A stretch of DNA of 50,538 bases from Rhodanobacteraceae bacterium (GCA_025924775.1 JAICHS010000001.1:1-50538); one strand, 5' to 3'. Positions 28,937 to 47,090 are shown, numbered from the stretch's first letter. Notes: a model not told the origin generated them from the letters alone. Numbers and translations are program-made.

Positions 28937-29013
28937 TGGCGACCCCGGCCCGATTCGAACGGGCGACCTTCCCCTTAGGAGGGGGACGCTCTATCCAGCT
29001 GAGCTACGGGGCC
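28937..29013 (-). tRNA. tRNA-Arg (anticodon CCT)
   Basis: Reverse complement is GGCCCCG TA GCTC AGCTGGATA GAGC G TCCCC CTCCTAA GGGGA AGGTC GCCCG TTCGAAT CGGGC CGGGGTC G CCA. This gives a full 77-nt cloverleaf with a 7-bp acceptor (one G-U), a TTCGAAT T-loop, an encoded CCA and anticodon loop CT-CCT-AA. Confidence 0.9.
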
Positions 29014-29129
29014 AGCATCGGGATTTTCGCATGAACCGTCCATGGTGGTGCGGTCCGGTCGGCATCCATGCCTCCCCGGTTGCGTTCGCGCGAGCGTCCA
29101 CTGGACGCTCGCAAGCGCTCGCGCAACCA

Positions 29130-29166
29130 CCAGCTGAGCTACGGGGCCAGCACCGGGATTTTCGCA
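29130..29166 (-). repeat. Duplicated tRNA-Arg leader + first 19 nt of the tRNA (truncated copy, 36/37 identical to 28995..29031)
   Basis: ccagctgagctacggggccagcaCcgggattttcgca (29130..29166) versus ccagctgagctacggggccagcaTcgggattttcgca (28995..29031). The copy diverges after tRNA position 19, so it is not a functional tRNA. Confidence 0.7.
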
Positions 29167-29249
29167 CGGTTGACGGTTTCGCGTGGCATTGACAGCCGCG
29201 CTGCGACGATCGGGCTCTCGCGGGCGTGCCGCCACAGAAGGGCAGTGGA

Positions 29250-31295: not shown

Positions 31296-32593
31296 GGCAA
31301 TACCCGCGCGACGTCGGGTACGAGGTCCTCAAGATTGTTGTCGAGGTAACGCACAACGTTGGCGGGCGTGTGCCAGCCGGGCGGCGCATCGCGCGAGCAG
31401 GCGTTGCGGAAGCGATCGCCCTCGCGGATCAGGAGTTCGCGGCGCTCCAGCCAGCGCAAGCGGGTGTTGACGATGCGGGCGACGCCGGCGTGCGCGAACA
31501 GCGGGTCCAGGCAAGGATGCACGCTGTGCAGCGCCGCATGCGCGTGCACGCACCAGTCCACCAGTTCAGCGCGTGTGAACGCCGTGGGTCCGTGCAGCAA
31601 CCAGTGCGCCAGCAGATGGCTGGGCGTGACCGGCGCCAATCCGAGGATCGCGTGGCGCAGGCCGGCATCGAATGCACGCCGATCCAGCGTGGTATCGGCG
31701 CGAAAGCGTTCGCCGATGCGGATCACGACCCGCGAACGGCCCGGCGCCAGCGTGTCGTAGGCAAGCGCCATCGGCTGGATCCAGGGTGGTGCCGCGGCCA
31801 TGTGCACGAGCCGGAAGAAACCGGCGCGGACGCGGCAGAAATGGCCGTCCATGGAAATGGTGCCTTCGGGCGCGAAGTACACACAGCGTCCCTGGTCCAG
31901 TCGTTGCGCGAAGTGGTCCAGTTGCGTGGTAACGGTGGTCCGCAACCTCGTGGCGATGGCGCGCCGCGCCCCCGGCTGCAAGCGACGCAAACCCCACCAC
32001 CCGTCCAGCGTTGCAGGGGGTGCGCGCGCCAGGCCATCGGCCAGCGCGGCGTGGCGCACCGCAAGCTCGCGCAGGCCGCGCGCATTGAGTAGTTCAGCAC
32101 AATCGGTCTGGCCCAAGCCTGCGTTGCACAGTGCCTGCAGCGCTTCGCCCAGTGTGAATTCCCGCATCCGGCGCATCGGCTCGGCGCGGCCCAGCGGGAA
32201 AAACCAGGTCAGCGAGATGCGCCCAAGCAAGGCCGGCAGCGGTTTGGGCCAGTGCACGGTCAGGCGTGACAGGATGCCGGGGCGGAACAGGTCCTCGCGC
32301 GTGGCGAAGAACGGCAACGGCCATTCAAAGCGCAACCCGCGCCGCCGCACCAGCACGGTGCCCAGCATCGGTCCATCCACGTCGCGCTGGTGGTTGGATG
32401 CAATCATGGTTCCGGGCGCGGTATGGAACGCCTCGGGCAGGATGACGCTACGCCGGTAGAACGCGTCGATCCACAGGTCGAAGCCCAGCTCGAGCAGCCA
32501 GCTGCCGAGCGGATGCGGATCCAGCCCGGCGTCCGGCAGCCACGGGAAGGCCCGGCGCGTTGGGTTCGGCGCAGGGGCGGCGTGGCGTTGCAT
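31289..32593 (-). CDS. PlsC/LPLAT-type acyltransferase with a long C-terminal extension
   Basis: 434 aa. Motif I is IASNHQRDVDGP (HX4D), with FFATREDLF and motif III YFAPEGTIS. About 200 further residues have no motif I recognise. Zero-nt spacing after the GT2 gene. Confidence 0.65.
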   Translation of the reverse strand: MQRHAAPAPNPTRRAFPWLPDAGLDPHPLGSWLLELGFDLWIDAFYRRSVILPEAFHTAPGTMIASNHQRDVDGPMLGTVLVRRRGLRFEWPLPFFATREDLFRPGILSRLTVHWPKPLPALLGRISLTWFFPLGRAEPMRRMREFTLGEALQALCNAGLGQTDCAELLNARGLRELAVRHAALADGLARAPPATLDGWWGLRRLQPGARRAIATRLRTTVTTQLDHFAQRLDQGRCVYFAPEGTISMDGHFCRVRAGFFRLVHMAAAPPWIQPMALAYDTLAPGRSRVVIRIGERFRADTTLDRRAFDAGLRHAILGLAPVTPSHLLAHWLLHGPTAFTRAELVDWCVHAHAALHSVHPCLDPLFAHAGVARIVNTRLRWLERRELLIREGDRFRNACSRDAPPGWHTPANVVRYLDNNLEDLVPDVARVLPC

Positions 32594-33712
32594 TCATGCC
32601 CGTCCGCGCAGATAGCGCCGGCCCTTCCACACCGAGCGCGTGCCGGCGAGGCCGCGTCCCGCGGAATACCAGGTCGCGGCCAGGAAAAAGCCGGCGGCGA
32701 GCGGCAGCAGCAGCGCAGCCAACGGGTTGCGGCGGTAGTACATCAGCGTGGGCAGATAACACGCGAGCAACGCCAGCACGGCCAGCAGCCCGATGGCGGT
32801 GGTGGCCTCGTTGCGGCCGCAGGCAAGCGCCAGCACCGGGACCCAGAACGCCAGGACCAGCAGGACCGAGGCGGCGAGTACCCGCGCCAGCGATTCGTGC
32901 AGCTGCACGAACGCGGTGCGCGCCAGCATGTGCGCGATGTCGCGGAACCCCGCGCGGCGCTCACTGGTGGCGTCGCGGGTCAACCCGATCCAGCAGCGGT
33001 AGCCGGCGTGCTTGAGGTGCGCGGCGAGGGTGCAGTCGTCGATCACGGCGCCGCGCCATGCGGCGAAGCCGCCAACCGCCAGCAGCGCCTCACGCTCGAG
33101 CAGGACCACGCCGCCGGCCGCTGCGGCGACGCGCGATCCGGCGCGGTTGGCCAGCGCAAACGGGTACAGCAGCTTGAAGAAATACACGAACGCCGGCAGC
33201 AGCCAGCGCGCCGCGAGGCCGCGCCAGCATGGCTCGGCGCACAGCGACGCCAGCGCGCAACCTGCATCGACCCGGCGTTGTAGCGGCGCCAGGATTCCGG
33301 GCGCCAGACGGATGTCGGCATCGAGCAGCAACACGCGCGGGGTGGTGACGTGCGCAAGACCTTGTTGCAGCGCCCACAACTTGCCGGTCCACCCGCCAGG
33401 GGGTGGCGTGCCGCGAATGACGCGCAGGTGGCCCAGGCCGCTGGTGCGCGCGATGGCCGCAGTGTCGTCGCTGGATTCATCGTCGACCACGAGCACCGCC
33501 GCGTCCGGCGCGGCCCGTGCCAGCGCGCGCAAGGTCGGGCCGATCACCGCGGCCTCGTTGCGTGCCGGGATCAACACCGTGAAGTCATTGCGCGGCGGCA
33601 CCGCGGGCGCGTCGGCTTCCAGCTGTTCGCGGCACGCCCACGCGCGCCACGGCGCCAGCATTACAGCGATCCAGCCGGCAAGCGCGACAGCGGCAAGGAT
33701 CAGCAGCGGCAT
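32594..33712 (-). CDS. Family 2 glycosyltransferase, hopene-associated HpnB-like
   Basis: ORF 32594..33799 trimmed to ATG 33712 (MPLLILAAVALAGWIAVMLAPW, TM). GT-A core is FTVLIPARNEAAVIGPTLRAL ... VLVVDDESSDDT ... GGWTGKLWALQQG ... LLLDADI. C-terminal TM helices are present. 10 nt downstream of hpnH. Confidence 0.7.
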   Translation of the reverse strand: MPLLILAAVALAGWIAVMLAPWRAWACREQLEADAPAVPPRNDFTVLIPARNEAAVIGPTLRALARAAPDAAVLVVDDESSDDTAAIARTSGLGHLRVIRGTPPPGGWTGKLWALQQGLAHVTTPRVLLLDADIRLAPGILAPLQRRVDAGCALASLCAEPCWRGLAARWLLPAFVYFFKLLYPFALANRAGSRVAAAAGGVVLLEREALLAVGGFAAWRGAVIDDCTLAAHLKHAGYRCWIGLTRDATSERRAGFRDIAHMLARTAFVQLHESLARVLAASVLLVLAFWVPVLALACGRNEATTAIGLLAVLALLACYLPTLMYYRRNPLAALLLPLAAGFFLAATWYSAGRGLAGTRSVWKGRRYLRGRA

Positions 33713-33722
33713 GGCGTTTGCG

Positions 33723-34853
33723 TCAGTGCTGGATGCCGCCGAAGTGCGCGATCGGGACGTCGCTGTGCGGATGCATCGGCGGTGGTGGCGTCGCGTCATA
33801 CATCAGCGGCGGATCGGCGGCGAACGGGCCGGTGAGCTTGGGGCCGCGCAGGCTTGCCCACAATGCCTTCCACGGACGCGCGATCGAATCGGCGGCCGCG
33901 GTGCCCTCGAAACCACAGTGCGCCATGCAGTTGGCGCACTTGGGGTTGCGGCCGACGCCGTAGTGGTCCCAGTCGGTGTTGTCCAGCAGCGCCTGCCAGG
34001 TCGGCTCATAGCCTTCATCCACCAGCAGGTAGCACGGTTTCTGCCAGCCGAACACGTTGCGGCAGGGCATGCTCCACGCGGTGCACTGATAACCCTGGTT
34101 GCCGCACACGAAGTCGATGAACAGGCTCGACTGCGAGAGCGCCCACTTGCGGCGATGCTGCTGCCTGTTGGTGAAGATCTTGCGCATCAGTTCCTTCGAC
34201 TGCCGCCGGCCCATGAAGACGTCCTGGCGCGGTGCATGCTCGTAGGCAAAGCCGGGCGAGAAGGTGATGCCATCGACCTTCAGATCGTTCGTGGCCCAGC
34301 TGAAGAACTCGGCGACCTCATCCGGTTTGGCCGTCTGGAACAGCGTGGTGTTGATGTTGACCCGGAACCCGCGGCGCTTGGCCTCGCGAATGGCGGCGGT
34401 GGCGATGTCGAACACGCCCTCGCGGCCGACGCTTTCATCGTGGCGTTCGCGCATGCCGTCCAGGTGTACCGAAAATGTCAACTGGTCGGACGGCGTGAAC
34501 AGGTCGAGCTTCTGCTGCATCAGGATCGCGTTGGTGCACAGGTACACGTACTTGCCGCGCGCGATGAAGCCATCGACGATGGCCTTGATGTCCTTGTGGA
34601 TGAGAGGCTCGCCGCCAGCCAGCGACACCATCGGCGCACCGCACTCGTCCACCGCCTGCATGCATTCCTCGACCGTGAGGCGTTGCTTCAGGATGTGCGA
34701 GTCGTAGTCGATCTTGCCGCAGCCGGGGCAGGCCAGATTGCACTGGAACAGGGGTTCCAGCATCAGCGTCAGCGGATAGCGCTGAACGCCGCGCAGTTTG
34801 CGCCCGATGATGTAGCTGGCAACCTTGAGTTGCTGACGAATGGGAATGGACAT
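33723..34853 (-). CDS. hpnH: Adenosylhopane synthase, hopanoid-associated radical SAM protein HpnH
   Basis: 376 aa, ATG 34853 with a GGAGG RBS. MSIPIRQQLKVASYIIGRKLRG, then LMLEPLFQCNLACPGCGKIDY (CxxxCxxC) and SLAGGEPL. The C-terminal cysteine-rich tail is CANCMAHCGFEG. Confidence 0.9.
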   Translation of the reverse strand: MSIPIRQQLKVASYIIGRKLRGVQRYPLTLMLEPLFQCNLACPGCGKIDYDSHILKQRLTVEECMQAVDECGAPMVSLAGGEPLIHKDIKAIVDGFIARGKYVYLCTNAILMQQKLDLFTPSDQLTFSVHLDGMRERHDESVGREGVFDIATAAIREAKRRGFRVNINTTLFQTAKPDEVAEFFSWATNDLKVDGITFSPGFAYEHAPRQDVFMGRRQSKELMRKIFTNRQQHRRKWALSQSSLFIDFVCGNQGYQCTAWSMPCRNVFGWQKPCYLLVDEGYEPTWQALLDNTDWDHYGVGRNPKCANCMAHCGFEGTAAADSIARPWKALWASLRGPKLTGPFAADPPLMYDATPPPPMHPHSDVPIAHFGGIQH

Positions 34854-35071
34854 CGCTGCCTCCGCTTCGCGCGTGTGCGTCGAATATTACCGGTGCGCGA
34901 CGCACACCGGTGGGCCGCCGACGATGGTGGACCGGCGCGTGTCAACGCGGCGTTTAGGCGCTGCGCACGGCGGATTCGTTGGGTTTCAGGGCGGATGCGC
35001 CGCCCACCGTTGCTGCGTGCGGCTAGTGTATGCTGGCACGTGATTCCACGGATCGTCAGGAGGCCGTCGCC

Positions 35072-35497
35072 ATGGCTGCCATTGCCGAACGGACGCGGGT
35101 TGCATTGTTCCCCGTCAACGCCGTGCTCGTGGCCGGGGCCACGTCACTGTTCATCGGCGCGCTGCTGAGCGACATCGCCTACTTCCGCAGCTACCAGATC
35201 CAGTGGAACAATTTCTCGTCGTGGCTGCTGGCCGGCGGCCTCGTCATCACCGCACTGGCATTCCTGTGGTCGATCGTCGAGTTGTTCCGTGCCCGCTGGC
35301 GCACGTGGCCGGCCTGGGCCTATTCCGTGTTGCTGCTGGCGACCTGGATAGTCGGCTTCATCGATGCGCTGGTGCACGCCAAGGACGCGTGGGCGACCAT
35401 GCCAGCCAGCCTGGTGCTGTCGGCCATCGTCGTGGCACTGGCGTGCCTGTCACTGGCATTTGCCTGGGCCGGGCTGCGTGCGGGAAGTGCGCGATGA
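35072..35497 (+). CDS. DUF2231-like membrane protein (4 TM)
   Basis: ORF 35030..35497 trimmed to ATG 35072, with the RBS caggagg 8 nt upstream. FPVNAVLVAGATSLFIGALLSDIAYF ... WLLAGGLVITALAFLW. Its stop overlaps the next start (ATGA). Confidence 0.6.
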   Translation: MAAIAERTRVALFPVNAVLVAGATSLFIGALLSDIAYFRSYQIQWNNFSSWLLAGGLVITALAFLWSIVELFRARWRTWPAWAYSVLLLATWIVGFIDALVHAKDAWATMPASLVLSAIVVALACLSLAFAWAGLRAGSAR

Positions 35498-36903
35498 AAC
35501 GCATGAATCTGCTGGCCGTCACCGCCGCTGCGATCCTGCTTGCCGGTTGCAGCGGCGGCAATGCGCCGCCCGAGCAGTACGGCGCCAATCCACAACTCCC
35601 GACCCCGCAGCGCGGCCTGTTGCCCAACATGACGATCGCCAGGCCGGCGGCCTGGGGGGATCGGTTGCCGACGGTGCCGCAGGGTTACGCGGTCAAGGCG
35701 ATTGCGACCGATCTTCGCATTCCGCGCCAGACCCTGGTGCTGCCCAACGGCGACATCCTTGTAGCCGAAGGCCGTGGCGGCAATGCGCCGAAACTGAAAC
35801 CCAAGGATGTGATCGCCAGCTACATCAAGGCCAAGGGTACGAGTCCGGTCAAGGGCGGCAACCGCCTGACCCTGCTGCGCGATGCGAATGGCGATGGCAC
35901 CTACGAATTGAAGACCGTTTTTGCCGATCACCTCAATGCGCCGTACGGATTGGCACTGGTGGGCGACACGCTCTACGTCGCCGACCAGGATGCGCTGGTG
36001 AAGTTCCACTACACCGTCGGCCAGACCCATGCGGACGGCGCGCCGGTCAAAGTCACCGACCTGCCTTCGGCGATCAACCATCACTGGACCAAGGCGTTGG
36101 CCGCCAGCGCGGACGGGCGGTACCTGTACGTCGGCATCGGCTCGAACAGCAACATCACCGAACGCGGCATGACCGCCGAAGTTGATCGCGCGCGGATCTG
36201 GCAGGTCGATCCGCGAACTGGAATGCATCGTGCCTATGCGACCGGCTTGCGCAATCCCACCGCGCTCGCGATCCAGCCCGGCACGGGGGCGCTGTGGGCG
36301 GTGGTGAACGAGCGCGACGAAATCGGCCCAGGCTTGGTGCCCGATTACCTCACCTCGGTGCGCGCGGGCGGCTTCTACGGCTGGCCGTACAGCTACTGGG
36401 GACGACACGTGGACGCCCGCGCCCAGCCGCAGGATCCGCAAAAAGTCGCGTCGGCAATCGTCCCCGACTACAGCCTGGGCTCGCACGTGGCCGCGCTCGG
36501 AGTCGCGTTCTCCTTGCCCGCGATGGGCGCGAAGTTTGCCGACGGCGTGTTCGTCGGCGAGCACGGTAGCTGGAACCGCGCCCATCCGGTTGGCTACAAG
36601 GTAGTGTTCGTGCCGTTCCGCGACGGTCATCCCGCCGGCGATCCGATCGATTTCGTGACGGGCTTTCGTGGCAAGGATGGGTTGACCCGCGGCCGGCCGG
36701 TCGGCGTGAGCGTTGATCCGCGCGGCGCGCTGATCGTTGCCGACGACCTGTCCAACACGATCTGGCGGGTGACGCCCGTCAAACCGGCAGCCGCAGCCAA
36801 CCCGCCCGAGTCCATGCCGGCGCCCCGCGAGGCACCACCGGCGGCACCCGCGACCGCGCCTGCTGCGGCGACGCCCCGTGCGCCCGGCGTGCCACAGGCG
36901 TAA
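35494..36903 (+). CDS. PQQ-dependent sugar dehydrogenase (sorbosone / soluble aldose dehydrogenase family) lipoprotein
   Basis: ATG 35494 inside ORF 35203..36903. MKRMNLLAVTAAAILLAGC|SGG is a lipobox. Beta-propeller blocks are PRQTLVLPNGDILVAEGRG, APYGLALVGDTLYVADQDALV, HWTKALAASADGRYLYVGIGSNSN, GLRNPTALAIQP, GFYGWPY and GEHGSWNR. There is a Pro/Ala-rich C-tail. Confidence 0.8.
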   Translation: MKRMNLLAVTAAAILLAGCSGGNAPPEQYGANPQLPTPQRGLLPNMTIARPAAWGDRLPTVPQGYAVKAIATDLRIPRQTLVLPNGDILVAEGRGGNAPKLKPKDVIASYIKAKGTSPVKGGNRLTLLRDANGDGTYELKTVFADHLNAPYGLALVGDTLYVADQDALVKFHYTVGQTHADGAPVKVTDLPSAINHHWTKALAASADGRYLYVGIGSNSNITERGMTAEVDRARIWQVDPRTGMHRAYATGLRNPTALAIQPGTGALWAVVNERDEIGPGLVPDYLTSVRAGGFYGWPYSYWGRHVDARAQPQDPQKVASAIVPDYSLGSHVAALGVAFSLPAMGAKFADGVFVGEHGSWNRAHPVGYKVVFVPFRDGHPAGDPIDFVTGFRGKDGLTRGRPVGVSVDPRGALIVADDLSNTIWRVTPVKPAAAANPPESMPAPREAPPAAPATAPAAATPRAPGVPQA

Positions 36904-37114
36904 ATACGACGCCATGCCGGGATTTGTGGAAGGCGCGTGCCGTCTCTCTCGTGGGCGTGGCCTGGTCGGGCCAGGTGCGCGAGCCGAGTGGGGACGCGTT
37001 CGGCTCGATGGCGATGGTTGCGCCTGATCTGCCGCGCGCCGATTGTGGTCGCGCAGCAACCGCAACATCGCGGGGAAAACGTAGGAAGCTTGGGTGTGGC
37101 GCGCCGCTTTCGAC

Positions 37115-37714
37115 TCAGGCTTCGCGCTGGCGCGGCGACGCCGCGGTGGCGCCCGGCAAGCGTGACACGAACTCGCCACGCAGGCGCTGCCATTCCATTT
37201 TCAGCCAGGGCGTGAAGCGCTCGGGCGTGTCGGCGATCTCGCGATCCAGTGCTGCGGGTTTGACGTAGCGCCATGCGGCGATTTCGGTGGGGTTGACGTG
37301 CACGGGCGCATCGGACCGGCCGACGTACACCCAGCACAGTTCGGTTTCCGAACCCGCGTCGCCGAACTCGGCGTGGTACTGGAACTTGTAGATGAACTCG
37401 AGTGGGCAGGCGAAACCCAGCTCTTCGCTCAGGCGCCGCTGCGTCGCAGTGTCCATGTCTTCGCCGCCGCGCGGGTGGCTGCAGCAACTGTTGGCCCAGT
37501 AACCGGGCCACAACGGCTTGCCGGGCGCGCGTTGCTGCAGCAGCAATTCGCCCGCCGGATTGAATACGAACAGCGAAAACGCGCGGTGCAGGATGCCGCG
37601 GCCCGCGTGTGCGTCGGCCTTGGAGGCGTGGCCAACCTCGCGGTCGTCCGCATCCACCAGGATCAATCGCTCGGAGTCGAACGAGACGACACGGTTGTCT
37701 TGTTGCTCAGCCAA
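37115..37714 (-). CDS. idi: Isopentenyl-diphosphate delta-isomerase, type 1 (Nudix)
   Basis: 199 aa. LHRAFSLFVFNPAGELLLQQRAPGKPLWPGYWANSCCSHP ... SETELCWVY aligns with E. coli Idi. The start is TTG 37714 (GGAGA RBS 6 nt upstream), overlapping the upstream stop by 8 nt. There is no ATG alternative; internal TTG and GTG starts are possible. Confidence 0.85.
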   Translation of the reverse strand: MAEQQDNRVVSFDSERLILVDADDREVGHASKADAHAGRGILHRAFSLFVFNPAGELLLQQRAPGKPLWPGYWANSCCSHPRGGEDMDTATQRRLSEELGFACPLEFIYKFQYHAEFGDAGSETELCWVYVGRSDAPVHVNPTEIAAWRYVKPAALDREIADTPERFTPWLKMEWQRLRGEFVSRLPGATAASPRQREA

Positions 37715-39965
37715 TGCTGGTCTCCATCGCCTGATAACCCGCCTGCTGCAACGCGCGCGCGACGCGGCCCGGATCGTCCGGGCACAGCGCGATCATCGCG
37801 CCGCCGCCACCACCGCCGGTGAGCTTGGCGCCCACCGCGCCGTTGGCGCGCGCGACCTGGATCATTTCTTCCAATTCCCAACTGGATACCTGCAAGGCGT
37901 TCAACTGGCCCTGGCAAATATTCATCAACTCGCCGAACTGTACGAGGTCCCAGGCATCCAGTGCCTTGATGCCTTGCATCGCCAGCGAATCGATTTCGTC
38001 GAAGATGCGTTCGTACAGCGCCTTGTTGCGCTGCCACGCCTCGCGCACGCGCCGCACGGTGCGTGCGGTCAGGCTTTCCACGCCGGACAGGCCGATCACC
38101 ATCGGCAGCGGTTTGACGAAGTGCAGCGGTTCGACCACCGGCGGTTCACCGCGCTGGAACAGCAGCGGCTGGCCGTACGTGGCCACCGTGTTGTCGATGC
38201 CCGAAGGCGTGCCGTGCGCAACGCGCTCGCACTCGTAGGCCAACGCACATACCTGCTGGTCGGTCAGGCCGAGCTCGCAGTGCCGGTCCAGCGCGCGGAT
38301 CACCGCGACCGCCAGCGCCGCCGAACCGCCAAGGCCATTGGCACGCGGCAGGCTGGGGTACACTTGGATGCGCAACGGGCGATCGCTGAGATCAAGCTTG
38401 GCCAGGATCAGTTCCAGCGATTGCAGGAACGAACCCGGATGCTTGGTGCCCGGATGCAGGCGTGATTCGACGCCCCAGCGCGGGATGATGAGTTGGGTTC
38501 CGTCCTTCGATTCCTCGGCGCGCGCGCGGATTGCCATCGGCACCGGCACCGCGAGCGCGTGGCGGCCGTACACCACGGCGTGCTCGCCCAAAAGGATCGC
38601 CTTGCCGTAACCGGTGGCGTATTCGGCTTCGTCCAGCGGCTCGAAACCCTGGGCCACCGTCTTGGCTTCCGGCTGCACCTGGGTGCGCACCTCGGCGATG
38701 ATTTCCTTGGCCTTCCACACCTTGATTTCGCCCGAATCCAGCAGGCGTTCAACTACGGTGTCAAAGATTTCCGGCGTGGCGCCCGCGCTGACCGCGACCG
38801 AACGCGCGTGCAGCGTCATGTGGCCCTGCTGGATACCGTCGGTGACCAGTGCGCGCAGCGCCGAGAAGTTCTGCGCCAGCCCCACCGCGCCCATGATCTC
38901 GGCCAATTCACGGGCGGAGGCCACGTGCAGCAGGCGCAGGTTCAACGCGACGGTGGCGTTGGATTGCAGGTTGCCCCCGACGGTGCCGACCTTCATCGGC
39001 ATTTCGATGTTGCCGACCAGATTGCCGGCGTCGTCCTTGTACCAGCGCGTCAGCGAGCTGTAGTGCGCGCCACGCGCGGCGTAGGCGTGCGCGGCGGCTT
39101 CCAGTGCACGCCAGTCGTTGCCGGTTGCCAGCGCCACCGCATCCACGCCGTTCATGATGCCCTTGTTGTGGGTGGCGGCGCGGTAGGGGTCGCACACCGC
39201 AAGGTCGTTGGCCAGGATGATGCCGTCGCGCACCTGCTCGCCGTCGTAGCCCTTGCCCGCCAGCAGCGCGGTCGGGATCACGGCCTTGGCCCACACCAGC
39301 GCGCGGTCGGTGAGGTTGGAAAGGATCCGCAGGAACACCTTGCCGCCGGTGATGCCTTCCACCAGCGGCGCGACGCCTTCGCACATGGTGTTGACCATGT
39401 TGGCGCCCATCGCGTCGCAGGTGTTCACCAGCAGGTGCAGCACGACCATGTCGCGGCGCCCGTCCGCGGCCGGGTGGATGCGCACCTCGATGTCCTTGGC
39501 GCCGCCACCGCGGGCCACCATCTTGGGGTGCAGGCTGTTGGCGAGGTTCAGGATCTCCTGCTTGCGTTGCAGCAACGCGGCCTGCGCGGTCGCCGAGTTG
39601 TCGATGTCGACGATCTGCACCTGGCCGATCAGGATCGGGTCGGTGCTGCGCGTGGTGAAGCCACCGGCTGCGCGCACCAGCTTCGCGGCGGACGAAAGTG
39701 CCGCGACGATCGAAGGTTCCTCGACCACCAGCGGCACCACGCGGTCCGCCCCGTTGATCGAAAAGTTGAGGCCAAGCCCCAGCGGCAGGCCCATCACGCC
39801 GATCACGTTTTCGATCATCTTGTCGGCGCGCGCGACGGTGAGCGTATGCGCGCCGCTGGACAGGGTCTGGAAATCCTCGCGTGAAAGCATCCCGCGCTCG
39901 CGCACGAGGTTCACGCGTTCGGACACCGACAACTTGTAGAAACCCGGAAATCTCGACTGATCCAT
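37707..39965 (-). CDS. Fusion protein: class II HMG-CoA reductase (aa 1 to ~427) + mevalonate kinase (aa ~449 to 752)
   Basis: 752 aa, one uninterrupted frame, ATG 39965. HMGR part: KMIENVIGVMGLPLGLGLNFSINGADRVVPLVVEEPSIVAA, CDAMGANMVNTM, ATHNKGIMNG and GTVGG (compare Pseudomonas mevalonii MvaA). The linker is about aa 428-448 (QVQPEAKTVAQGFEPLDEAEY). MVK part (GHMP): GYGKAILLGEHAVVYG, LPRANGLGGSAALAVAVIRAL, HGTPSGIDN and GAKLTGGGGGGAMIAL. Confidence 0.85.
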   Translation of the reverse strand: MDQSRFPGFYKLSVSERVNLVRERGMLSREDFQTLSSGAHTLTVARADKMIENVIGVMGLPLGLGLNFSINGADRVVPLVVEEPSIVAALSSAAKLVRAAGGFTTRSTDPILIGQVQIVDIDNSATAQAALLQRKQEILNLANSLHPKMVARGGGAKDIEVRIHPAADGRRDMVVLHLLVNTCDAMGANMVNTMCEGVAPLVEGITGGKVFLRILSNLTDRALVWAKAVIPTALLAGKGYDGEQVRDGIILANDLAVCDPYRAATHNKGIMNGVDAVALATGNDWRALEAAAHAYAARGAHYSSLTRWYKDDAGNLVGNIEMPMKVGTVGGNLQSNATVALNLRLLHVASARELAEIMGAVGLAQNFSALRALVTDGIQQGHMTLHARSVAVSAGATPEIFDTVVERLLDSGEIKVWKAKEIIAEVRTQVQPEAKTVAQGFEPLDEAEYATGYGKAILLGEHAVVYGRHALAVPVPMAIRARAEESKDGTQLIIPRWGVESRLHPGTKHPGSFLQSLELILAKLDLSDRPLRIQVYPSLPRANGLGGSAALAVAVIRALDRHCELGLTDQQVCALAYECERVAHGTPSGIDNTVATYGQPLLFQRGEPPVVEPLHFVKPLPMVIGLSGVESLTARTVRRVREAWQRNKALYERIFDEIDSLAMQGIKALDAWDLVQFGELMNICQGQLNALQVSSWELEEMIQVARANGAVGAKLTGGGGGGAMIALCPDDPGRVARALQQAGYQAMETSIG

Positions 39966-39983
39966 TTGTGTTCCCTGGAAGCC

Positions 39984-41009
39984 TCAAGCAACTGATGCAA
40001 CCGCCAGACCCGCGGGGTCCGTTGACAAATCGATCACGGGAAAACCCGCGCGCGACGCGCGCCTGGCAAACTCCCGCAACCGCCCATCTTCCACGCCCAA
40101 CGTGATGCCGACGTCACCGTTGCCCGCGCCGCAGCTTTTGTAGACGCAACCGCAATCCGCGGCGATCGCCGCGATGGCCCGATGCTCACGGCTGGCGATA
40201 TCCACGCCCGCGGACTCGCCGAAGCGGGCCAGGGCATCCGCGTAAGCATGGAAGCTGGACAGGAAGGCAGCGGCATCGCTGGCGGCCAAGGCGTTGATAC
40301 CGCGTGACGAAATTGTAGCGAGTTCGTGCATCCCTTGTGCGTAACCGGCAGGCTCACGTTCGCGCCAAGCCGCGACCGCGGCCAGCATCGCGCCGGTCGA
40401 GGCGGGCCTGCCGCTGTACACGCAGCGCCAGTGCAGGCCGGACGGCCACGCGAGCGGCGCGACATGCGCGGCATCGCCTTCCAGCTGGAAGCGCGACAGG
40501 CCACCGACAAGCGACGCCGCGATGTCGATACCGCTGCCGCGGCCGTGCTGGATGCCGCGATGGGCGGCGATGGCGGTGTCGAGAGAAACCGGCGGTCGGT
40601 TTGCGCGTGCGTGCAAGGCGCCCAGCAACGCGACCGTCAGGGCGGCGCTGGAGCCCAGGCCCAGCTTGGCGCGGGCACCCGCGTGTTCGAAGTAGAACGC
40701 ATTGCTTTCGAGTTCGACGCGGCAGGGCGGCAGGGCTTCGCCACGCCCGAACTCGCCCAGCAGTTGGGCAACCCATGCGAGTTCGCCCGGTACCCCCTCG
40801 CGCCGGGCGTCGACGTCACCGCGCGCTGGCAGGCACGCCGCAAGTTCGAGCGTGGGCGAGACGATTTCCCAGTCCCCGCCGACGCTGTCGGCAAGCCGCA
40901 CGTGCGCGCGGCGGTTCACCGCCAGCACCAGCGCAGGCGCGCCTTCCAGCACCGCGTATTCGCCCAGCAGCACCAGCTTGCCGGGTGCGCTGGCCGTGAT
41001 GCGCGTCAA
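39984..41009 (-). CDS. Phosphomevalonate kinase (GHMP, ERG8/MvaK2 type)
   Basis: The track ORF 39984..41477 overlaps mvaD for 470 nt, so I trimmed it to TTG 41009, which overlaps the mvaD stop (TTGA). (M)TRITASAPGKLVLLGEYAVLEGAPALVLAVN is the PMK N-terminal signature. The GHMP motif is GLGSSAALTVALLGAL. 341 aa. The non-ATG start is inferred. Confidence 0.7.
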   Translation of the reverse strand: MTRITASAPGKLVLLGEYAVLEGAPALVLAVNRRAHVRLADSVGGDWEIVSPTLELAACLPARGDVDARREGVPGELAWVAQLLGEFGRGEALPPCRVELESNAFYFEHAGARAKLGLGSSAALTVALLGALHARANRPPVSLDTAIAAHRGIQHGRGSGIDIAASLVGGLSRFQLEGDAAHVAPLAWPSGLHWRCVYSGRPASTGAMLAAVAAWREREPAGYAQGMHELATISSRGINALAASDAAAFLSSFHAYADALARFGESAGVDIASREHRAIAAIAADCGCVYKSCGAGNGDVGITLGVEDGRLREFARRASRAGFPVIDLSTDPAGLAVASVA

Positions 41010-42037
41010 GCGTCGGCCTCGACCACGCGCGCGCCCGCGCCGAGTCCGCTCGGCAACACGTCCTCGACGCCCGCGACGCCGCGCAATGCCTCGACCACGC
41101 GCGCGGCGTGGTCCGGCAGGCACACCGCCTTCACCTGCGGCCCCGCGTCGATGGTGAAGAACACCCCCGTGCCGCCGCGCTGCAACTCGCGAATGCACTG
41201 GATGCACCCGACGGTCGCGGCGTTCCAGTAGATGAGGCCGGGTCGCGCGGACAGCATCACCGCGTGCATCGCAAGGCAACTGGCTTCGCCGGTGCGCGCA
41301 AGGCTCTCGAAATCGCGCGAGCGCACCGCGGCGCGGGCGGCGGCGAGGTCGGCAGGCACGGCCGCGATCCAGTCGCGGTAGTAAGGCGAGGTCTGCCGGG
41401 TACGGTCCATGCCGGCGCGCGAGCTGACGGTCTTCTTTTCGCGCGCGGTGATTGCGATCACGACTTCCAGTGGCCACGCCGCGGCTTCCAGCAGCGGCGT
41501 CGCGAAGGCGTCTTCGCCGTCGTCGCGCGTGCCCGCGGCCATTTCCACGAAGCCGCCGAAGATTGAACGCGCGGCCGAGCCGGAACCGCGTCGTGCGAGG
41601 ATCGACAATTCCCGTTGGTCCAGGTTCAACCCCAGGGCGTGGTCCACCGCGATCGCCAGCGCCGCGAAACCGGACGCCGACGATGCCAGTCCCGCGCCGG
41701 TGGGAAAGTCATTGCCGGATTCGATGTGCGCGCGCGTCGTGATGCCCGCGCGTGCGCGGAACAGGTCAAGAAACGCGCCGAGCTTGCGGCTTTGCGTGGC
41801 GTCGTGCCGGCCATTCAACGCGATGTCGTCAGCGGTGAGTGTGTCGTCAAAGCGCACGTGCGTGCGGGTGTGCAGCGCATCCAGCGTGATCGACAACGAA
41901 CCCGCCGCCGGCAGGTTCAAGGCATCGTCGCGCTTGCCCCAGTACTTGACCAGCGCGATGTTGGGTTGGGCTGTCGCAGTGGCGTGCCGGATTGGCGTAG
42001 TCATCCGTCGTAATTCGTCTTCAGTCACAGGGTACAT
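41006..42037 (-). CDS. mvaD: Diphosphomevalonate decarboxylase
   Basis: 343 aa. ATAQPNIALVKYWGKRDDALNLPAAGSLSITL, NDFPTGAGLASSASGFAALA, RRGSGSAARSIFGGF and FFTIDAGPQV are present. The start may be ATG 42037 or ATG 42004. Confidence 0.85.
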   Translation of the reverse strand: MYPVTEDELRRMTTPIRHATATAQPNIALVKYWGKRDDALNLPAAGSLSITLDALHTRTHVRFDDTLTADDIALNGRHDATQSRKLGAFLDLFRARAGITTRAHIESGNDFPTGAGLASSASGFAALAIAVDHALGLNLDQRELSILARRGSGSAARSIFGGFVEMAAGTRDDGEDAFATPLLEAAAWPLEVVIAITAREKKTVSSRAGMDRTRQTSPYYRDWIAAVPADLAAARAAVRSRDFESLARTGEASCLAMHAVMLSARPGLIYWNAATVGCIQCIRELQRGGTGVFFTIDAGPQVKAVCLPDHAARVVEALRGVAGVEDVLPSGLGAGARVVEADA

Positions 42038-42050
42038 TTTTCTCTTCGTT

Positions 42051-42087
42051 ATTCCGGGGCTGCCCGCCTGCGGGCAGAACCCGGAAT
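42051..42087 (-). other. Strong intercistronic stem-loop between hpnA and mvaD
   Basis: attccgggg-ctgcccg-cctg-cgggcag-aa-cccggaat: 8 + 7 bp with a small internal loop and a 4-nt loop. It ends 14 nt before the mvaD ATG (42037). No U-run on the minus strand. Confidence 0.5.
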
Positions 42088-42186
42088 CCAGTTTCTCAAT
42101 GCGAAGAACCGATTCCGGGTTCCAGCGCCGATGGAGCGGCGATGGCCTCGGAATGACGATGGAAAATCATCGAATCTGGACCAAGA

Positions 42187-43179
42187 TCAGCGGAGGTATC
42201 CATTGTCCCGGAACCATTGTATTGCGTCGGCCAGTGCCTCCCGCGCCGGGCGCGCGTACCAGCCGAGTTCGGTTTCAGCCTGCCGGCTTGAAAAATACAT
42301 CCGGTGCCGCGACAGCTTCACGCCGGCGACGCTGATGGTCGGCGGATTGCCGCTTATGCGTGCCCACGCCTCGGCCACGTGGGCAATCGGCAACACCGCG
42401 GCATGCGGCAGCTTGAGCCAGGGCCCGTGGCGGTGGGTGAGTTCGGCAATCGTTTGCAGGATGGCGCGCAGGCTGAGGTTTTCGCCCCCCAGCACGTAAC
42501 GGCGGCCGCGCTGCCCGCGCTGGTATGCCAGCACGTGGCCTTCGGCGACGTCGTCCACGTGCACGATGCACAGGCCGGTGTCGACATAGGCCGGCATGCG
42601 CCCGCGCGCGGCGTCGAGGATGGTGCGCCCGGTCGGCGTGGGCTTGCGGTCGCGCGGGCCGACGGGCGCCGCCGGGTTCACGATCACGATGTCGCTGCCG
42701 GCACGCGCGCATCGGCGAACCAGCGCCTCGGACAGGAACTTGGAACGCTTGTAGGCGCCGACCATGTCGGCCAGGCGTGCCGGCGTGGCCTCGTCGGCGG
42801 GCGTGCCATCGTGGTTGAATCCCAGCGTCGCCACGCTGGACGTGTGCACGATGCGGGCCACGCTGGAGCGTCGTGCCGCCGCCAGGATGTTGTGGGTGCC
42901 GCGCACATTGGCGCGGTAAATCGCGTGCGGGTCGCGCGCCCACAGCCGGTAATCGGCGGCGACGTGGAACAGGCCGGTACAGCCTTGCAGCGCGCGCTCC
43001 AGCGAGGGCGGATCCAGCAGGTCGCCACGGGCGGTCTCGATGGCCAAGCCGTCGAGGCTGGTGGTATCGCTGCCGGCCCGCACCAATGCACGCACCGGAT
43101 AGCCGTGGCGCAACAGCGCGCGCACCACCGCCGAGCCCACGAATCCGTTGGCGCCACTGACCAGGATGCGCCCGCTCAT
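42187..43179 (-). CDS. hpnA: Hopanoid-associated NAD-dependent sugar epimerase/dehydratase-like protein HpnA
   Basis: The track ORF 42187..43794 overlaps hpnG, so I trimmed it to ATG 43179 (ATGA overlap with the hpnG stop). MSGRILVSGANGFVGSAVVRALLRHGYPVRALVR is the Rossmann GxxGxxG. FHVAADYRLW and YKRSKFLSE (YxxxK) are present. 330 aa. Confidence 0.8.
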   Translation of the reverse strand: MSGRILVSGANGFVGSAVVRALLRHGYPVRALVRAGSDTTSLDGLAIETARGDLLDPPSLERALQGCTGLFHVAADYRLWARDPHAIYRANVRGTHNILAAARRSSVARIVHTSSVATLGFNHDGTPADEATPARLADMVGAYKRSKFLSEALVRRCARAGSDIVIVNPAAPVGPRDRKPTPTGRTILDAARGRMPAYVDTGLCIVHVDDVAEGHVLAYQRGQRGRRYVLGGENLSLRAILQTIAELTHRHGPWLKLPHAAVLPIAHVAEAWARISGNPPTISVAGVKLSRHRMYFSSRQAETELGWYARPAREALADAIQWFRDNGYLR

Positions 43180-43892
43180 GCGGCCAGCGACGCGGCGGTC
43201 GCCAGCGTGCGCCGGGCGTGCGCGAAATCCCGCGCCAGCGCGCGTGCCGCGCGCCAAGTCGTGGGGCCGCCCAGGGCGATCGCCGCGAGCATACGCAGCG
43301 AAAACCCGCCATCGGCGCCGTCCAGGGCGTGCACGATGCTCGCGGGCAGTTCGCGCGCCAGCGGGTCGCAAATCGCCTTGACGGCCACGAACGGCAGCTT
43401 GGCGCGCAGCGCGACTGCCGCGATCGGCGCGGCTTCCATGTCCACCGCGACGGCACCGCTGTGCGTGGCCAGTGCCTGTTTCTCGGCCGCTGAGGCCACC
43501 GGTTGCGGGGTCGACCACAGCGCGCCGCGGTGTACCCGCAGGCTGCCGGACAGCGCGGCGGCCAGCTGCTCGCTTGCCAGCGCGTCGGTGGCGAACCCGG
43601 GGTCGTCGTGTGCGTAGCGGATGTGGTCGGGAATCAGCACGTCGCCAGGCGCAAACCCGGCATCCAGCGCACCAGCCACGCCCCAGTTCGCCAACCGGGT
43701 GACGCCGCAGGTCAGCAGGCGTTCGGCGGCGCGCATCGCGTTGTGCGGGCCAATGCCCGACACCGCGATCCAGCCGCGGTGCCAGCGCTTGCACTCGCCG
43801 GGGTGCAGGCCGTACACACCGAGGCTGTGCGCTTCCGCCGGAAGCGCCACCACCAAGCCCGTGCCCTCAGTGAAACTGCCCGGTGTGGACAT
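43176..43892 (-). CDS. hpnG: Hopanoid-associated phosphorylase/nucleosidase HpnG (PNP_UDP fold)
   Basis: 238 aa. GLVVALPAEAHSL, IAVSGIGPHNA, LANWGVAGAL, GDVLIPD, AVAVDMEAAPIA and AVKAICD are present. ATG 43892 would overlap shc by 26 nt. An alternative is TTG 43856, preceded by GAGGG. Confidence 0.75.
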   Translation of the reverse strand: MSTPGSFTEGTGLVVALPAEAHSLGVYGLHPGECKRWHRGWIAVSGIGPHNAMRAAERLLTCGVTRLANWGVAGALDAGFAPGDVLIPDHIRYAHDDPGFATDALASEQLAAALSGSLRVHRGALWSTPQPVASAAEKQALATHSGAVAVDMEAAPIAAVALRAKLPFVAVKAICDPLARELPASIVHALDGADGGFSLRMLAAIALGGPTTWRAARALARDFAHARRTLATAASLAA

Positions 43893-45807
43893 TGTGGAAG
43901 CGCACCAGCGCCCAGTAGGGAAAGTAACGGTTGTAGCCGTGGTATTTCAGGTAGAACACGCGCGGAAAACCCGGCGCGTTGAAACGCGAGTCGTGCCATT
44001 CGCCATCGACCTGCGTCTTCAGCAGGTATTCGATGCCACGCGCCACCGCGTGGCTGTCGGCCTCGCCGGCTTCCAGCAGCGCCAGCAGCGCCCACGCCGT
44101 CTGCGCCGGGCCACTGTGGGCGCCGCGTCCGCGCAGGTTTGGATCAAGGTAGCTGTCGTTGCCTTCGCCCCAGCCGCCGTCGGCCTGCTGCACCGATTCC
44201 AGCCAGGCCACCGCGCGGCGGACCGCGGGGGCATCGACGGCCATGCCGGCCCCGCGCAGCGCGACCAGTACCGACCACGTGCCGTACAGGTAATTGGTGC
44301 CCCAGCGGCCAAACCACGCGCCTTCGCCGGTTTGATCATCCAGCAGGAACTGCAGCACGCGCTGGCGCGCCTTGCGGTCCTGCGCGCGGTCGAGCATCGA
44401 CAACAGTGTCAACACGCGCCCGCTGACGTCGCTGGTGGGCGGATCCAGCAACGCGCCGTGGTCGGCGAACGGAATCTGGTTGAGCCACTGGTGGTTGTTG
44501 TCGGCGTCGAAGGCCGCGAAACCGCCGTTCTTCGATTGCATCCCGCACAACCAGTCGGCGGCGCGCGTGATGGCCTCGGCATGCTGCGCACGCTCGGGGG
44601 ATTGCTGCAGCGCGCGGGCGACCACCGCGGTGTCGTCGAGGTCGGGATACGCATCATTCCTGAACTGGAACGCCCAACCGCCACCGGCAAGCTGCGGGCG
44701 ATAGGCGCGCCAGTCACCCGGTTCATCGCGCAGCTGGCGTGCCACCAGCCACGCCAGCGCGCGGCGGGTGGCGCCCGCGGGCGCGGCGGGGTCCTCCTGC
44801 AGCGCGAGGCAGGCCAGGCCGGTATCCCACACCGGGGATACGCAGGGCTGGCACCATGCCGCGTGGTCGTGCACCACCAGCAGGTCGTCGATGGCCTTGC
44901 GGGTTTCGCGGCGTGCCGGGTGGTCGGCCGGCAGCCCCAGCAGTGCCAGGGCCTCGTAGGCGTTGACCATCGCGGGAAAGATCGCGCCCAGGCCGCCATC
45001 GCCGTTGCGGCGCGCGAGGATCCACGCCTTGGCGCGCTGCAGCGCATACGCACGCACGCGGCGCGGGATCAGGCCATCCAGGCGCCGCATGCCTGCCTCG
45101 CACAGGCACAGCGCGCGGTTCAGCAGCGAGCGCGGGCGGAAGTAATGTCGTTCCTGCCGCGGCGGCGTGGTGAACAGTTCCGCGACGTGCAGGCCGAGCG
45201 GGTTGGCGGCGCGCGGTTTCAGTGTCGTCAGCACCGACAACGGCACCATCACCGTGCGCGACCAGTACGACACCTTGCTGAGGTTGAAGGGGAACCAGCG
45301 CGGCAGCAGCACGATCTCGACCGGCAGGAACGGCACGCCGCGCCACGGCACGTCACCGAACAGGGCCAGCGTGATGCGGGTGAACACGTTGCTGCGCGCC
45401 GCGCCACCGCGCGCAAGGATGGCCGCACGGGCATGCAGCATGTGCGGCGCGTCGGCACGGTCGCCGGCCAGTTTCAGCGCGAAATAGCACTTCACGCTGC
45501 AACTGATGTCCAGCGCGCCGCCCGGGTACAGCGGCCAGCCGCCGTTGCGGCACTGGCGTTCGCGCAGGTACTCGGCGAGGCGCGATTCCAGCAGGCGGTC
45601 GGATTCACCGAGGTAGTGCAGCATCAGGATGTATTCGGCCGGGATCGTGCAGTCGGCTTCCAGTGGATACTGCCAATAGCCGTCCGCGTGCTGGTGTGCA
45701 AGGATGCGCGCGCGCGCCGCGGCGATGGCCGCGCCCAGGCGGTCGGTCGCGGCGGTCTGGCCCGGAACCGTGGTGCCTGTTTGCGGCATGCTGGAGTCGG
45801 GGGGCAT
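43867..45807 (-). CDS. shc: Squalene-hopene cyclase
   Basis: ORF 43867..45843; I prefer ATG 45807, which lies 4 nt after the sqs stop, with 45843 as the alternative. Catalytic YPDLDDTAVVARAL (DxDDTA). Repeated QW motifs (QCRNGGW, RRNGDGG, MQSKNGGF, QTGEGAWFGRWG, QQADGGWGE). GWAFQFRN. Confidence 0.9.
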   Translation of the reverse strand: MPPDSSMPQTGTTVPGQTAATDRLGAAIAAARARILAHQHADGYWQYPLEADCTIPAEYILMLHYLGESDRLLESRLAEYLRERQCRNGGWPLYPGGALDISCSVKCYFALKLAGDRADAPHMLHARAAILARGGAARSNVFTRITLALFGDVPWRGVPFLPVEIVLLPRWFPFNLSKVSYWSRTVMVPLSVLTTLKPRAANPLGLHVAELFTTPPRQERHYFRPRSLLNRALCLCEAGMRRLDGLIPRRVRAYALQRAKAWILARRNGDGGLGAIFPAMVNAYEALALLGLPADHPARRETRKAIDDLLVVHDHAAWCQPCVSPVWDTGLACLALQEDPAAPAGATRRALAWLVARQLRDEPGDWRAYRPQLAGGGWAFQFRNDAYPDLDDTAVVARALQQSPERAQHAEAITRAADWLCGMQSKNGGFAAFDADNNHQWLNQIPFADHGALLDPPTSDVSGRVLTLLSMLDRAQDRKARQRVLQFLLDDQTGEGAWFGRWGTNYLYGTWSVLVALRGAGMAVDAPAVRRAVAWLESVQQADGGWGEGNDSYLDPNLRGRGAHSGPAQTAWALLALLEAGEADSHAVARGIEYLLKTQVDGEWHDSRFNAPGFPRVFYLKYHGYNRYFPYWALVRFHNVHTGQFH

Positions 45808-45811
45808 GGCC

Positions 45812-46942: not shown

Positions 46943-47032
46943 CCTGTGGGTCTCCTTCGGCGCGTCGCCGGCCGACGTTTTGATCCTACGCATTGTGCGT
47001 GAAGATGAGGTGGAAGTCGCGCGGAGGCTGCT

Positions 47033-47062
47033 TTGACAGGCATGCGGCGCCGTCGCTAGGCT
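47033..47062 (+). promoter_or_regulatory. Sigma70-like promoter candidate for ispA
   Basis: TTGACA (47033..47038), an 18-nt spacer, then TAGGCT (47057..47062), about 29 nt before the ispA ATG. By-eye match only. Confidence 0.25.
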
Positions 47063-47090
47063 CGCGGCGCGGCGGCGCGCGCCGCCTGAC

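Follow-up and report, generated by a model that had tools for sequence, protein, structure and literature searches.

A 50,538-nucleotide stretch of DNA from a Rhodanobacteraceae bacterium (GCA_025924775.1, JAICHS010000001.1:1-50538), which we analyzed as a whole and refer to as the window, carries a gene whose predicted product joins two enzymes of the mevalonate pathway, a class II hydroxymethylglutaryl-CoA (HMG-CoA) reductase (HMGR) and a mevalonate kinase (MVK) of the GHMP family. The gene occupies 37707..39965 as one unbroken, ATG-started open reading frame (ORF) of 752 codons plus a TGA stop, as is evident from both the ORF list and the translation. An uninterrupted frame of this length had been proposed at these coordinates in the original prediction, which gave no strand; the ORF lies on the minus strand. 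The product has 752 residues and a predicted mass of 80.4 kDa. The G+C content of the ORF, 0.86 at third codon positions (GC3) and 0.44 at second positions (GC2), is typical of real genes in a window of 67% G+C. The gene and its parts are as follows.

37707..39965, minus strand: fused HMGR-MVK gene (ORF list, Pfam and NCBIfam matches to both halves, GC3 0.86)
38685..39965, minus strand: class II HMGR domain, residues 1-427 (TIGR00532, alignment with 1QAX, conserved catalytic residues)
39510..39530, minus strand: cofactor-helix motif HPKMVAR, residues 146-152 (translation; H146 and R152 invariant)
38685..38834, minus strand: HMGR C-terminal flap domain with the catalytic His382, residues 378-427 (1QAX residues ~377-426; AlphaFold2 helices)
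38622..38684, minus strand: interdomain linker TQVQPEAKTVAQGFEPLDEAE, residues 428-448 (outside all family models and PDB alignments; AlphaFold2 predicted local distance difference test score, pLDDT, <50)
37710..38621, minus strand: GHMP mevalonate kinase domain, residues 449-752 (TIGR00549; matches to solved mevalonate kinases)

Family models recognize both halves of the protein at levels far beyond chance, with domain E-values of 1e-107 and 5e-69. Pfam places HMG-CoA_red (PF00368; 358 bits) at residues 14-387, with GHMP_kinases_N at 517-597 and GHMP_kinases_C at 667-744. The more specific NCBIfam models TIGR00532 (class II HMGR; residues 1-387) and TIGR00549 (the mevalonate kinase equivalog, EC 2.7.1.36; residues 454-727) score 415.7 and 232.8 bits against cut-offs of 260 and 163, and the class I HMGR model TIGR00533 reaches only 52 bits for a cut-off of 442. 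All of the motifs on which the original prediction was built (ENVIG, EEPSIVAA, DAMGANMVNTM, and GTVGG in the reductase; GKAILLGEHAVVYG, GLGGSAALAVA, and GAKLTGGGGGG in the kinase) are present in the translation. The domain limits proposed there, residues 1 to ~427 and ~449 to 752, agree with Pfam, NCBIfam, and the alignment with 1QAX, and the linker of about 20 residues expected at 38622..38684 reads as 21 residues on the minus strand. These results support the proposal of a single polypeptide with two enzymes of consecutive steps, a class II HMGR and a mevalonate kinase, each of them complete.

The reductase half appears intact to its last helix. Residues 4-427 align without large gaps to residues 5-426 of the 428-residue chain of the P. 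mevalonii enzyme (1QAX; 411 bits), which indicates that the C-terminal flap domain is complete, and an AlphaFold2 model places helices at 376-393, 398-411, and 416-428 in this region. Class II enzymes rely on Glu83, Lys267, Asp283, and His381 in P. mevalonii numbering (PMC12292504, which also defines the flap domain). Their counterparts in the fused protein are E83, K268, D284, and H382, and these residues together with N272 are kept in 118-119 of 119 sequences in an alignment of the query with 118 full-length fused homologs (67-95% identity).

The kinase half likewise carries the hallmarks of its family. Solved mevalonate kinases (2HFS, 145 bits; 2X7I, 128 bits; 6MDE, 125 bits) align over their whole length with residues 449-752, GKAILLGEHAVVYG, GLGGSAA, TPSGIDN, and KLTGGGGGG falling on the corresponding motifs of these three structures. 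GHMP motifs I (GKxILxGEHxVV), II (GLGxSAA), and III (KxTGxGGGG) and the catalytic Asp within TPSGxD are all present. The roles of these motif residues are known from the rat and archaeal mevalonate kinases. K455, E461, S548, and D591 are invariant among the fused homologs, and E580 occurs in 118 of the 119.

The junction between the two halves was examined in relatives, using one genome per species and search patterns derived from both domains; the best 80 of 588 relatives were verified as fusions. HMGR and MVK are in frame without an intervening stop in all 80 of these loci, which come from genomes of different species. The linker spans 17 to 29 residues with little sequence conservation, and a frame kept open through so variable a segment indicates that the linker is translated through. 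The best 120 matches among 5.8 billion proteins all contain the three Pfam domains and are nearly all 745-805 residues long, the exceptions being a 736-residue partial sequence and a 1,131-residue triple fusion. The kinase domain has no initiator Met of its own.

An AlphaFold2 monomer run with a 58-sequence alignment gave a model with a mean pLDDT of 80.7, in which both domains are confidently predicted and residues 431-445 fall to a pLDDT of ~30 (predicted template modeling score, pTM, 0.51). As modeled, the protein is two independently folded modules on a flexible, disordered tether. The tether starts directly after helix 416-428, the last of the flap; the flap bears the catalytic residue His382 and shuts over the active site of HMGR.

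A domain-architecture search, of the kind proposed in the original prediction as a measure of taxonomic spread, found the fusion to be widespread in Gammaproteobacteria; an earlier biochemical description, the other outcome envisaged there, was not found in the literature searched. About 20 clusters at 50% identity, drawn by an exhaustive HMMER search from 1.84 billion representatives, align with the window protein end to end at identities down to 36-41%, and the window protein shares 95% identity with proteins of Rhodanobacteraceae metagenome-assembled genomes (MAGs). Cultured carriers include Rhodanobacter lindaniclasticus DSM 17932, Wenzhouxiangella sediminis XDB06, Wenzhouxiangella sp. EGI_FJ10305, and Litchfieldella qijiaojingensis KCTC 22228, and there are many MAGs of Rhodanobacteraceae, Arenicellales, Salinisphaerales, Natronospirales, and Woeseiaceae. 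In Table S1 of a 2026 review (PMC13001223), Rhodanobacter is scored with both the methylerythritol phosphate (MEP) and the mevalonate (MEV) pathways, and Wenzhouxiangella and Woeseia with MEV only; on that scoring, isopentenyl diphosphate (IPP) would be reached in the latter genera through the fused enzyme alone. Named homologs are all called "hydroxymethylglutaryl-CoA reductase" or the same with "degradative" appended. No product name marks them as bifunctional or mentions the kinase.

A few fused genes at 70-81% identity also occur in MAGs labeled Gemmatimonadaceae, Casimicrobiaceae, Thermoanaerobaculia, and Dermatophilaceae (L029, L039, L075, and P0066), a level of identity that makes mis-binning of gammaproteobacterial sequence or recent transfer likelier than ancient presence.

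The fused gene lies among further genes of the mevalonate pathway and of hopanoid synthesis, which we list here in the order of the two sets.

41006..42037, minus strand: diphosphomevalonate decarboxylase (MVD; TIGR01240 297.8 bits, cut-off 171; Pfam MVD-like_N and MDD_C)
39984..41009, minus strand: phosphomevalonate kinase (PMK)-like GHMP kinase, 341 residues, TTG start (best solved relative 3K17)
37115..37714, minus strand: type 1 isopentenyl-diphosphate isomerase (IDI), TTG start (NF002995 168.7 bits, cut-off 127; TIGR02150 152 bits, cut-off 106)
42187..43179, minus strand: HpnA hopanoid-associated sugar epimerase, 330 residues from the ATG at 43179 (TIGR03466 464.9 bits, cut-off 368)
43176..43892, minus strand: nucleoside phosphorylase-family protein, putatively HpnG-like (Pfam PNP_UDP_1 101.7 bits)
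43867..45843, minus strand: squalene-hopene cyclase (SHC; TIGR01507 791.5 bits, cut-off 431; Pfam SQHop_cyclase_N and _C)
45812..47092, minus strand: squalene synthase (SQS)-like protein of the SQS_PSY family (TIGR01559 112 bits, below the cut-off of 287; HpnD and HpnC models lower)
47091..47987, plus strand: divergently oriented polyprenyl (farnesyl) diphosphate synthase (Pfam polyprenyl_synt 176.8 bits)
33723..34853, minus strand: HpnH adenosyl-hopene transferase, a radical SAM protein (TIGR03470 505.4 bits, cut-off 225)
32594..33799, minus strand: HpnB-like glycosyltransferase (TIGR03469 299 bits, below the cut-off of 379)
35030..36903, plus strand: two unrelated genes between IDI and HpnH, for a DUF2231 membrane protein and a GSDH/DUF7133-like beta-propeller protein
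28940..29013, minus strand: tRNA at the edge of the hopanoid-related block (Rfam RF00005, 63.4 bits)

With MVD, the PMK-like kinase, and IDI beside HMGR and MVK, the locus has the makeup of a classical (diphosphomevalonate) mevalonate pathway operon. The genes are tightly packed: the start of PMK overlaps the stop of MVD by 4 nt, the ATG of the fusion, preceded by AGGGAA, comes 18 nt after the PMK stop, and the start of IDI overlaps the fusion stop by 8 nt. The order MVD-PMK-fusion-IDI recurs in nearly all of the 80 loci, a few of whose contigs end early. Squalene-hopene cyclase, HpnA, and HpnH, all above their cut-offs, mark a hopanoid (hpn/shc) cluster, and hopanoid genes flank the operon in most Rhodanobacteraceae-type loci. 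The ~700-nt gap between SHC and HpnA is kept in related loci.

At 28000..47987, the window holds an ~18-kb hopanoid cluster that encloses the mevalonate operon, an arrangement kept in most Rhodanobacteraceae-type loci; more genes for lipid modification lie downstream, and acyltransferase, LPG_synthase_TM-like, and GT28-like proteins are encoded there as well. Since IDI and HpnH are only ~100-250 nt apart in most related loci, the gene pair at 35030..36903 looks like a local insertion.

In the mechanism that we propose, the N-terminal class II HMGR would use two reducing equivalents, whose predicted source is NADPH, to turn HMG-CoA into mevalonate, and the C-terminal GHMP kinase would use ATP to convert mevalonate to mevalonate 5-phosphate. 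The two modules would fold independently and be joined by the disordered linker of ~20 residues that starts right after the mobile flap. As the third cistron of a translationally coupled MVD-PMK-[HMGR-MVK]-IDI operon, the fusion gene would contribute to the joint conversion of HMG-CoA to IPP and dimethylallyl diphosphate, and the position of the operon within the hopanoid cluster suggests that its product most likely feeds hopanoid synthesis in this bacterium. The fusion most likely arose when a stop codon and an intergenic spacer were lost between adjacent hmgr and mvk cistrons, a process that would have gone further in relatives with PMK-HMGR-MVK and HMGR-MVK-IDI proteins. We hold with good confidence that the gene encodes a true bifunctional enzyme of the mevalonate pathway, together with these proposals on operon, hopanoid supply, and origin.

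Several observations weigh against parts of this interpretation. Hopanoid genes are absent around the Wenzhouxiangella-type loci, and the link to hopanoids is one of gene neighborhood. Neither HMG-CoA synthase nor thiolase was found among the ORFs of the window or in the +/-8-kb flanks of four related loci (L059, L065, L066, and L079); these enzymes may be encoded elsewhere in the genome, and HMG-CoA might come from an unlinked mvaS or from leucine catabolism. No interface between the domains is seen in the monomer model, which offers nothing structural for a tunnel. In-frame GTG codons in the linker may allow internal initiation, which would yield an additional, separate kinase. Finally, the third position of the cofactor-helix motif is not Ser as in characterized NADPH enzymes, and this departure from the published motif is why the cofactor preference is given here as a prediction.

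Other fusions of the same enzymes bear on the origin of the window gene. A 1131-residue PMK-HMGR-MVK protein occurs in two Pseudomonadota MAGs (P0098), HMGR-MVK-IDI proteins occur in Desulfobacterales and Pseudomonadota MAGs (P0122 and P0123), and there is an MVK-IDI fusion (P0269). By BLASTP, the PMK and IDI domains added in these proteins are homologs of the PMK and IDI of the window. These three architectures follow operon order, which supports an origin through loss of stops and spacers between adjacent cistrons. In Myxococcota MAGs, on contigs up to 486 kb long, the two domains are found in reversed order, as MVK-HMGR (P0145); this arrangement is clearly independent of HMGR-MVK and implies at least two separate joinings of the two enzymes. 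A neighbor-joining tree of HMGR domains groups most HMGR-MVK representatives with the query and scatters five others; the branches of the tree are long and unsupported and cannot serve to count fusion events.

Metagenomes, including JGI/IMG data for P0155 and P0168, hold further proteins in which HMGR is followed at its C terminus by polyprenyl synthase, SQS, HpnA-like epimerase, or SHC-like domains (P0155, P0158, P0160, P0165, P0168, and P0179). Their architectures are HMGR-polyprenyl synthase (786 residues), HMGR-polyprenyl synthase-SQS (1162 and 1453 residues), HMGR-SQS-HpnA-like epimerase (1253 residues, on at least 13 contigs), HMGR-epimerase (880 residues), and HMGR-SHC-like (932 residues). 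One more protein, P0163, extends HMGR by ~330 residues that have no Pfam match.

What the fusion achieves beyond joining two activities can be framed at several levels. It certainly gives a 1:1 stoichiometry and co-localization of the reductase and the first kinase, and kinetic channeling of mevalonate is plausible. A much stronger version, in which the fused chains form a closed or polymeric metabolon that passes mevalonate to the kinase without equilibration with the bulk and that might also couple the reductase to feedback inhibition of the kinase, seems unlikely to us. The two activities are fused in both orders, in the window and in the Myxococcota MAGs, and other lineages have added further neighbors, which together suggest repeated selection for physical linkage; moreover, the kinase is tethered to the very flap that folds over the active site of the reductase. 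HMGRs form dimers or hexamers and mevalonate kinases form dimers, and strong channeling presumes that both interfaces persist in the fused chain. Dimers are reported in PMC13488460. Against a metabolon of this kind stand the low pTM of the monomer model, with its disordered linker and no predicted interface, the unconserved linker sequence, and the possibility that fusions in operon order arise and persist neutrally or for co-expression alone.

We consider equally doubtful a broader scenario in which an operon-collapsing family of fusions was selected for self-assembling, flap-tethered metabolons that channel their substrate, and in which hopanoids have a private supply kept apart from the MEP pathway. 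Such a family would comprise the HMGR-MVK core, MVK-HMGR, PMK-HMGR-MVK, HMGR-MVK-IDI, HMGR-farnesyl diphosphate synthase-SQS, and HMGR-SQS-epimerase proteins. The scenario would include a self-contained supercluster leading from HMG-CoA to bacteriohopanepolyol in Rhodanobacteraceae, reportedly holders of both pathways, with the MEP pathway serving essential isoprenoids, and HMG-CoA possibly derived from leucine catabolism instead of a dedicated synthase.

Returning to the bifunctional enzyme, one of its domains could in principle be dead or regulatory, the GHMP domain acting, for example, as a mevalonate or ATP sensor while the true kinase is encoded elsewhere. A feature that points this way is motif II, which reads GLGGSAA instead of the common GLGSSAA; the Leishmania mevalonate kinase likewise deviates there (GIGASAS). 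In both domains, the residues for catalysis and nucleotide binding are either invariant or conserved to at least 99% across the 119 homologs, the operon offers no other mevalonate kinase candidate, its second kinase being PMK-like, and genera scored as mevalonate-only carry the fusion. We therefore judge a dead or purely regulatory domain to be quite improbable.

Nor do we favor an exchange of kinase roles, with the fused domain acting as phosphomevalonate kinase and the free-standing upstream gene (39984..41009) as mevalonate kinase. The free-standing protein is admittedly ambiguous by family models, scoring 82 bits on the PMK and 81 bits on the MVK model, both below cut-off. Its best solved relative, however, is Lin0012 (3K17; 72.9 bits), which we take to be the product of the gene in the PMK position of the Listeria operon, and it matches mevalonate kinases at no more than 39 bits; this resemblance leaves the fused domain as the operon's only mevalonate kinase candidate. 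The fused domain itself passes the mevalonate kinase equivalog cut-off (232.8 versus 163 bits), reaches just 37-40 bits on PMK models, and has mevalonate kinases as all 11 of its best solved relatives. The model scores and the resemblance of the neighbor to a PMK-position protein lend indirect support to a predicted specificity for mevalonate and not phosphomevalonate. On these model scores and PDB matches we reject the exchange as very unlikely.

The direction of the reductase was weighed in the same way. Among solved structures it is closest to the P. mevalonii HMGR, which is degradative and NAD-dependent, and TIGR00532 and all named homologs bear a "degradative"-type name, so that a reductase running from mevalonate to HMG-CoA could be read from the databases. 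The label of the named homologs is, however, inherited from TIGR00532, and the cofactor helix argues for the opposite. An Asp equivalent to D146 of P. mevalonii determines NADH preference, and NADPH enzymes have His or Tyr there (PMC12292504); the published motifs are Dx(V/L)xxxL for NADH and (H/Y)xSxxxR for NADPH (Miller & Kung, as cited in PMC13488460). In the window protein the helix is H146-P-K-M-V-A-R152, which lacks the NADH-determining Asp and fits the NADPH motif at its first and seventh positions. Every one of the 119 fused homologs keeps H146 and R152, and position 148, the third of the motif, is K, N, R, H, or Q. We accordingly predict a biosynthetic reductase that is either NADPH-preferring or dual in cofactor use. 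Furthermore, the fusion partner of the reductase is a mevalonate-consuming kinase, its operon contains PMK, MVD, and IDI inside a squalene/hopanoid cluster, and no HMG-CoA lyase is adjacent. On cofactor helix and genomic context we reject a degradative role, to which we give hardly any credence, and we regard the database name as misleading.

The least tenable alternative, that a frameshift or the loss of a stop codon made one gene out of separate hmgr and mvk genes in this window only, a concern that had been raised for the linker and that draws on the lack of any family model covering it, is ruled out for practical purposes by the in-frame, stop-free junctions of 80 of 80 independently assembled loci with linkers of differing length and sequence, by the shared three-domain architecture of 120 of 120 best matches of ~750 residues, and by carriers among which are genomes of isolates and contigs as long as 3.5 Mb.

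Among known systems, the bifunctional HMGR-MVK protein most resembles MvaE of Enterococcus faecalis, likewise a natural bacterial polypeptide with two mevalonate-pathway enzymes, one of them a class II HMGR. MvaE, the known bacterial fusion named in the original prediction, is indeed the only mevalonate-pathway fusion in the 2026 review (PMC13001223). Its partner is an N-terminal thiolase, whereas the window protein matches no thiolase family, starts with HMGR from residue 1, and has its partner, a GHMP kinase, at the C terminus behind the flap. The activities of MvaE are also not consecutive, because the HMG-CoA synthase step lies between them, whereas those of HMGR and MVK are. The only other pathway fusion in that review is, for the MEP pathway, IspDF, a widespread bacterial fusion of two isoprenoid-precursor enzymes, which differs in its pathway, in its unrelated folds, and in catalyzing two steps that are not consecutive.

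The separate halves have close free-standing counterparts. Class II HMGRs such as 1QAX and those of Delftia acidovorans (6DIO/6EEU), Burkholderia cenocepacia (6P7K), and S. pneumoniae (5WPJ) align with the N-terminal 427 residues at 345-411 bits and have the same catalytic Glu, Lys, Asp, and His, along with a complete flap. The nearest solved HMGRs have Asp146, the NADH determinant, whereas the window protein has H146...R152 and a C-terminal extension of 325 residues. The free-standing mevalonate kinases of Leishmania major (2HFS), S. aureus (2X7I), and Methanosarcina mazei (6MDE/4HAC) align over their full length at 125-145 bits and share GHMP motifs I-III and the catalytic Asp; the window kinase is instead a domain behind a disordered linker. 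At the level of the cluster, the hpn clusters of Zymomonas and Rhodopseudomonas include MEP genes such as dxs or ispH. Precursor genes are thus embedded there too, but they belong to the MEP pathway, and the cluster in the window has a mevalonate operon.

The original prediction was not aware of a characterized HMGR-MVK fusion, and the full-text literature searched, which lacks most subscription journals, holds no description of one; none turned up on targeted reading of PMC13001223, PMC6107057, PMC13488460, and PMC12292504. A 2026 study with a network of 6,924 bacterial HMGR nodes makes no mention of natural fusions (PMC13488460), and the only remark on fusions in Hoshino & Gaucher 2018 is that fused partners were trimmed before phylogeny. 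A mevalonate-hopanoid supercluster is likewise not reported in the full-text literature searched.

The fusion is real, widespread, under-annotated, and apparently uncharacterized, and it is built from two well-known enzymes. As it is not rare, its novelty lies in having gone unrecognized and uncharacterized and not in being unique to the window, and it overturns nothing established. For specialists, the points of interest are a kinase placed behind the flap, an NADPH-type helix amid a clade whose solved members use NADH, the fusions in operon order, and the mevalonate-hopanoid supercluster. Because the names of these proteins reflect HMGR only, automated reconstructions can miss the mevalonate kinase and assign the wrong direction, which affects a large set of soil, sediment, and saline Gammaproteobacteria, some with the fusion as their only isoprenoid route. 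The architecture indicates that class II HMGR can bear a large C-terminal cargo on its mobile flap, and it provides a natural test case for channeling of a small, soluble intermediate by a fusion of consecutive enzymes. Engineered terpenoid pathways classically meet bottlenecks and feedback at HMGR and mevalonate kinase; for such pathways the naturally optimized fusion, probably of NADPH type, and its triple-fusion relatives would be ready-made parts. A mevalonate operon within a hopanoid cluster, in a genus scored with both pathways, suggests a dedicated supply of hopanoid precursors.

Scans for regulatory elements gave little. No sigma-70-like site was found in a promoter scan of the operon, and terminator-like sites are fewer there than in shuffled sequence, both scans being uninformative in so G+C-rich a genome. 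An Rfam scan of 28-50.5 kb found no riboswitch or leader near the operon, only the tRNA listed above.

The gap between HpnA and MVD (42038..42186) contains, at 42077..42122, a perfect 12-bp inverted repeat, GAACCCGGAATC / GATTCCGGGTTC, with arms 22 nt apart. Downstream of it in the direction of transcription, just upstream of MVD, is a 7-bp G+C-rich hairpin (CTGCCCG-CAGG-CGGGCAG). The repeat occurs once in the window, and approximate copies lie in the same place in 2 of the 80 loci (L014 and L038); in several loci HpnA and MVD abut without a gap. The repeat may serve as an operator or form an RNA hairpin, or it may be a small element that was inserted there.

Elsewhere in the window, a 759-residue ORF on the plus strand (18862..21141) appears to be an alpha-beta fusion of a 2-oxoacid dehydrogenase E1, with the alpha model at residues 52-371 and the beta model at 426-754, both below cut-off. 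An acyl-CoA dehydrogenase is encoded nearby, at 16529..17698.

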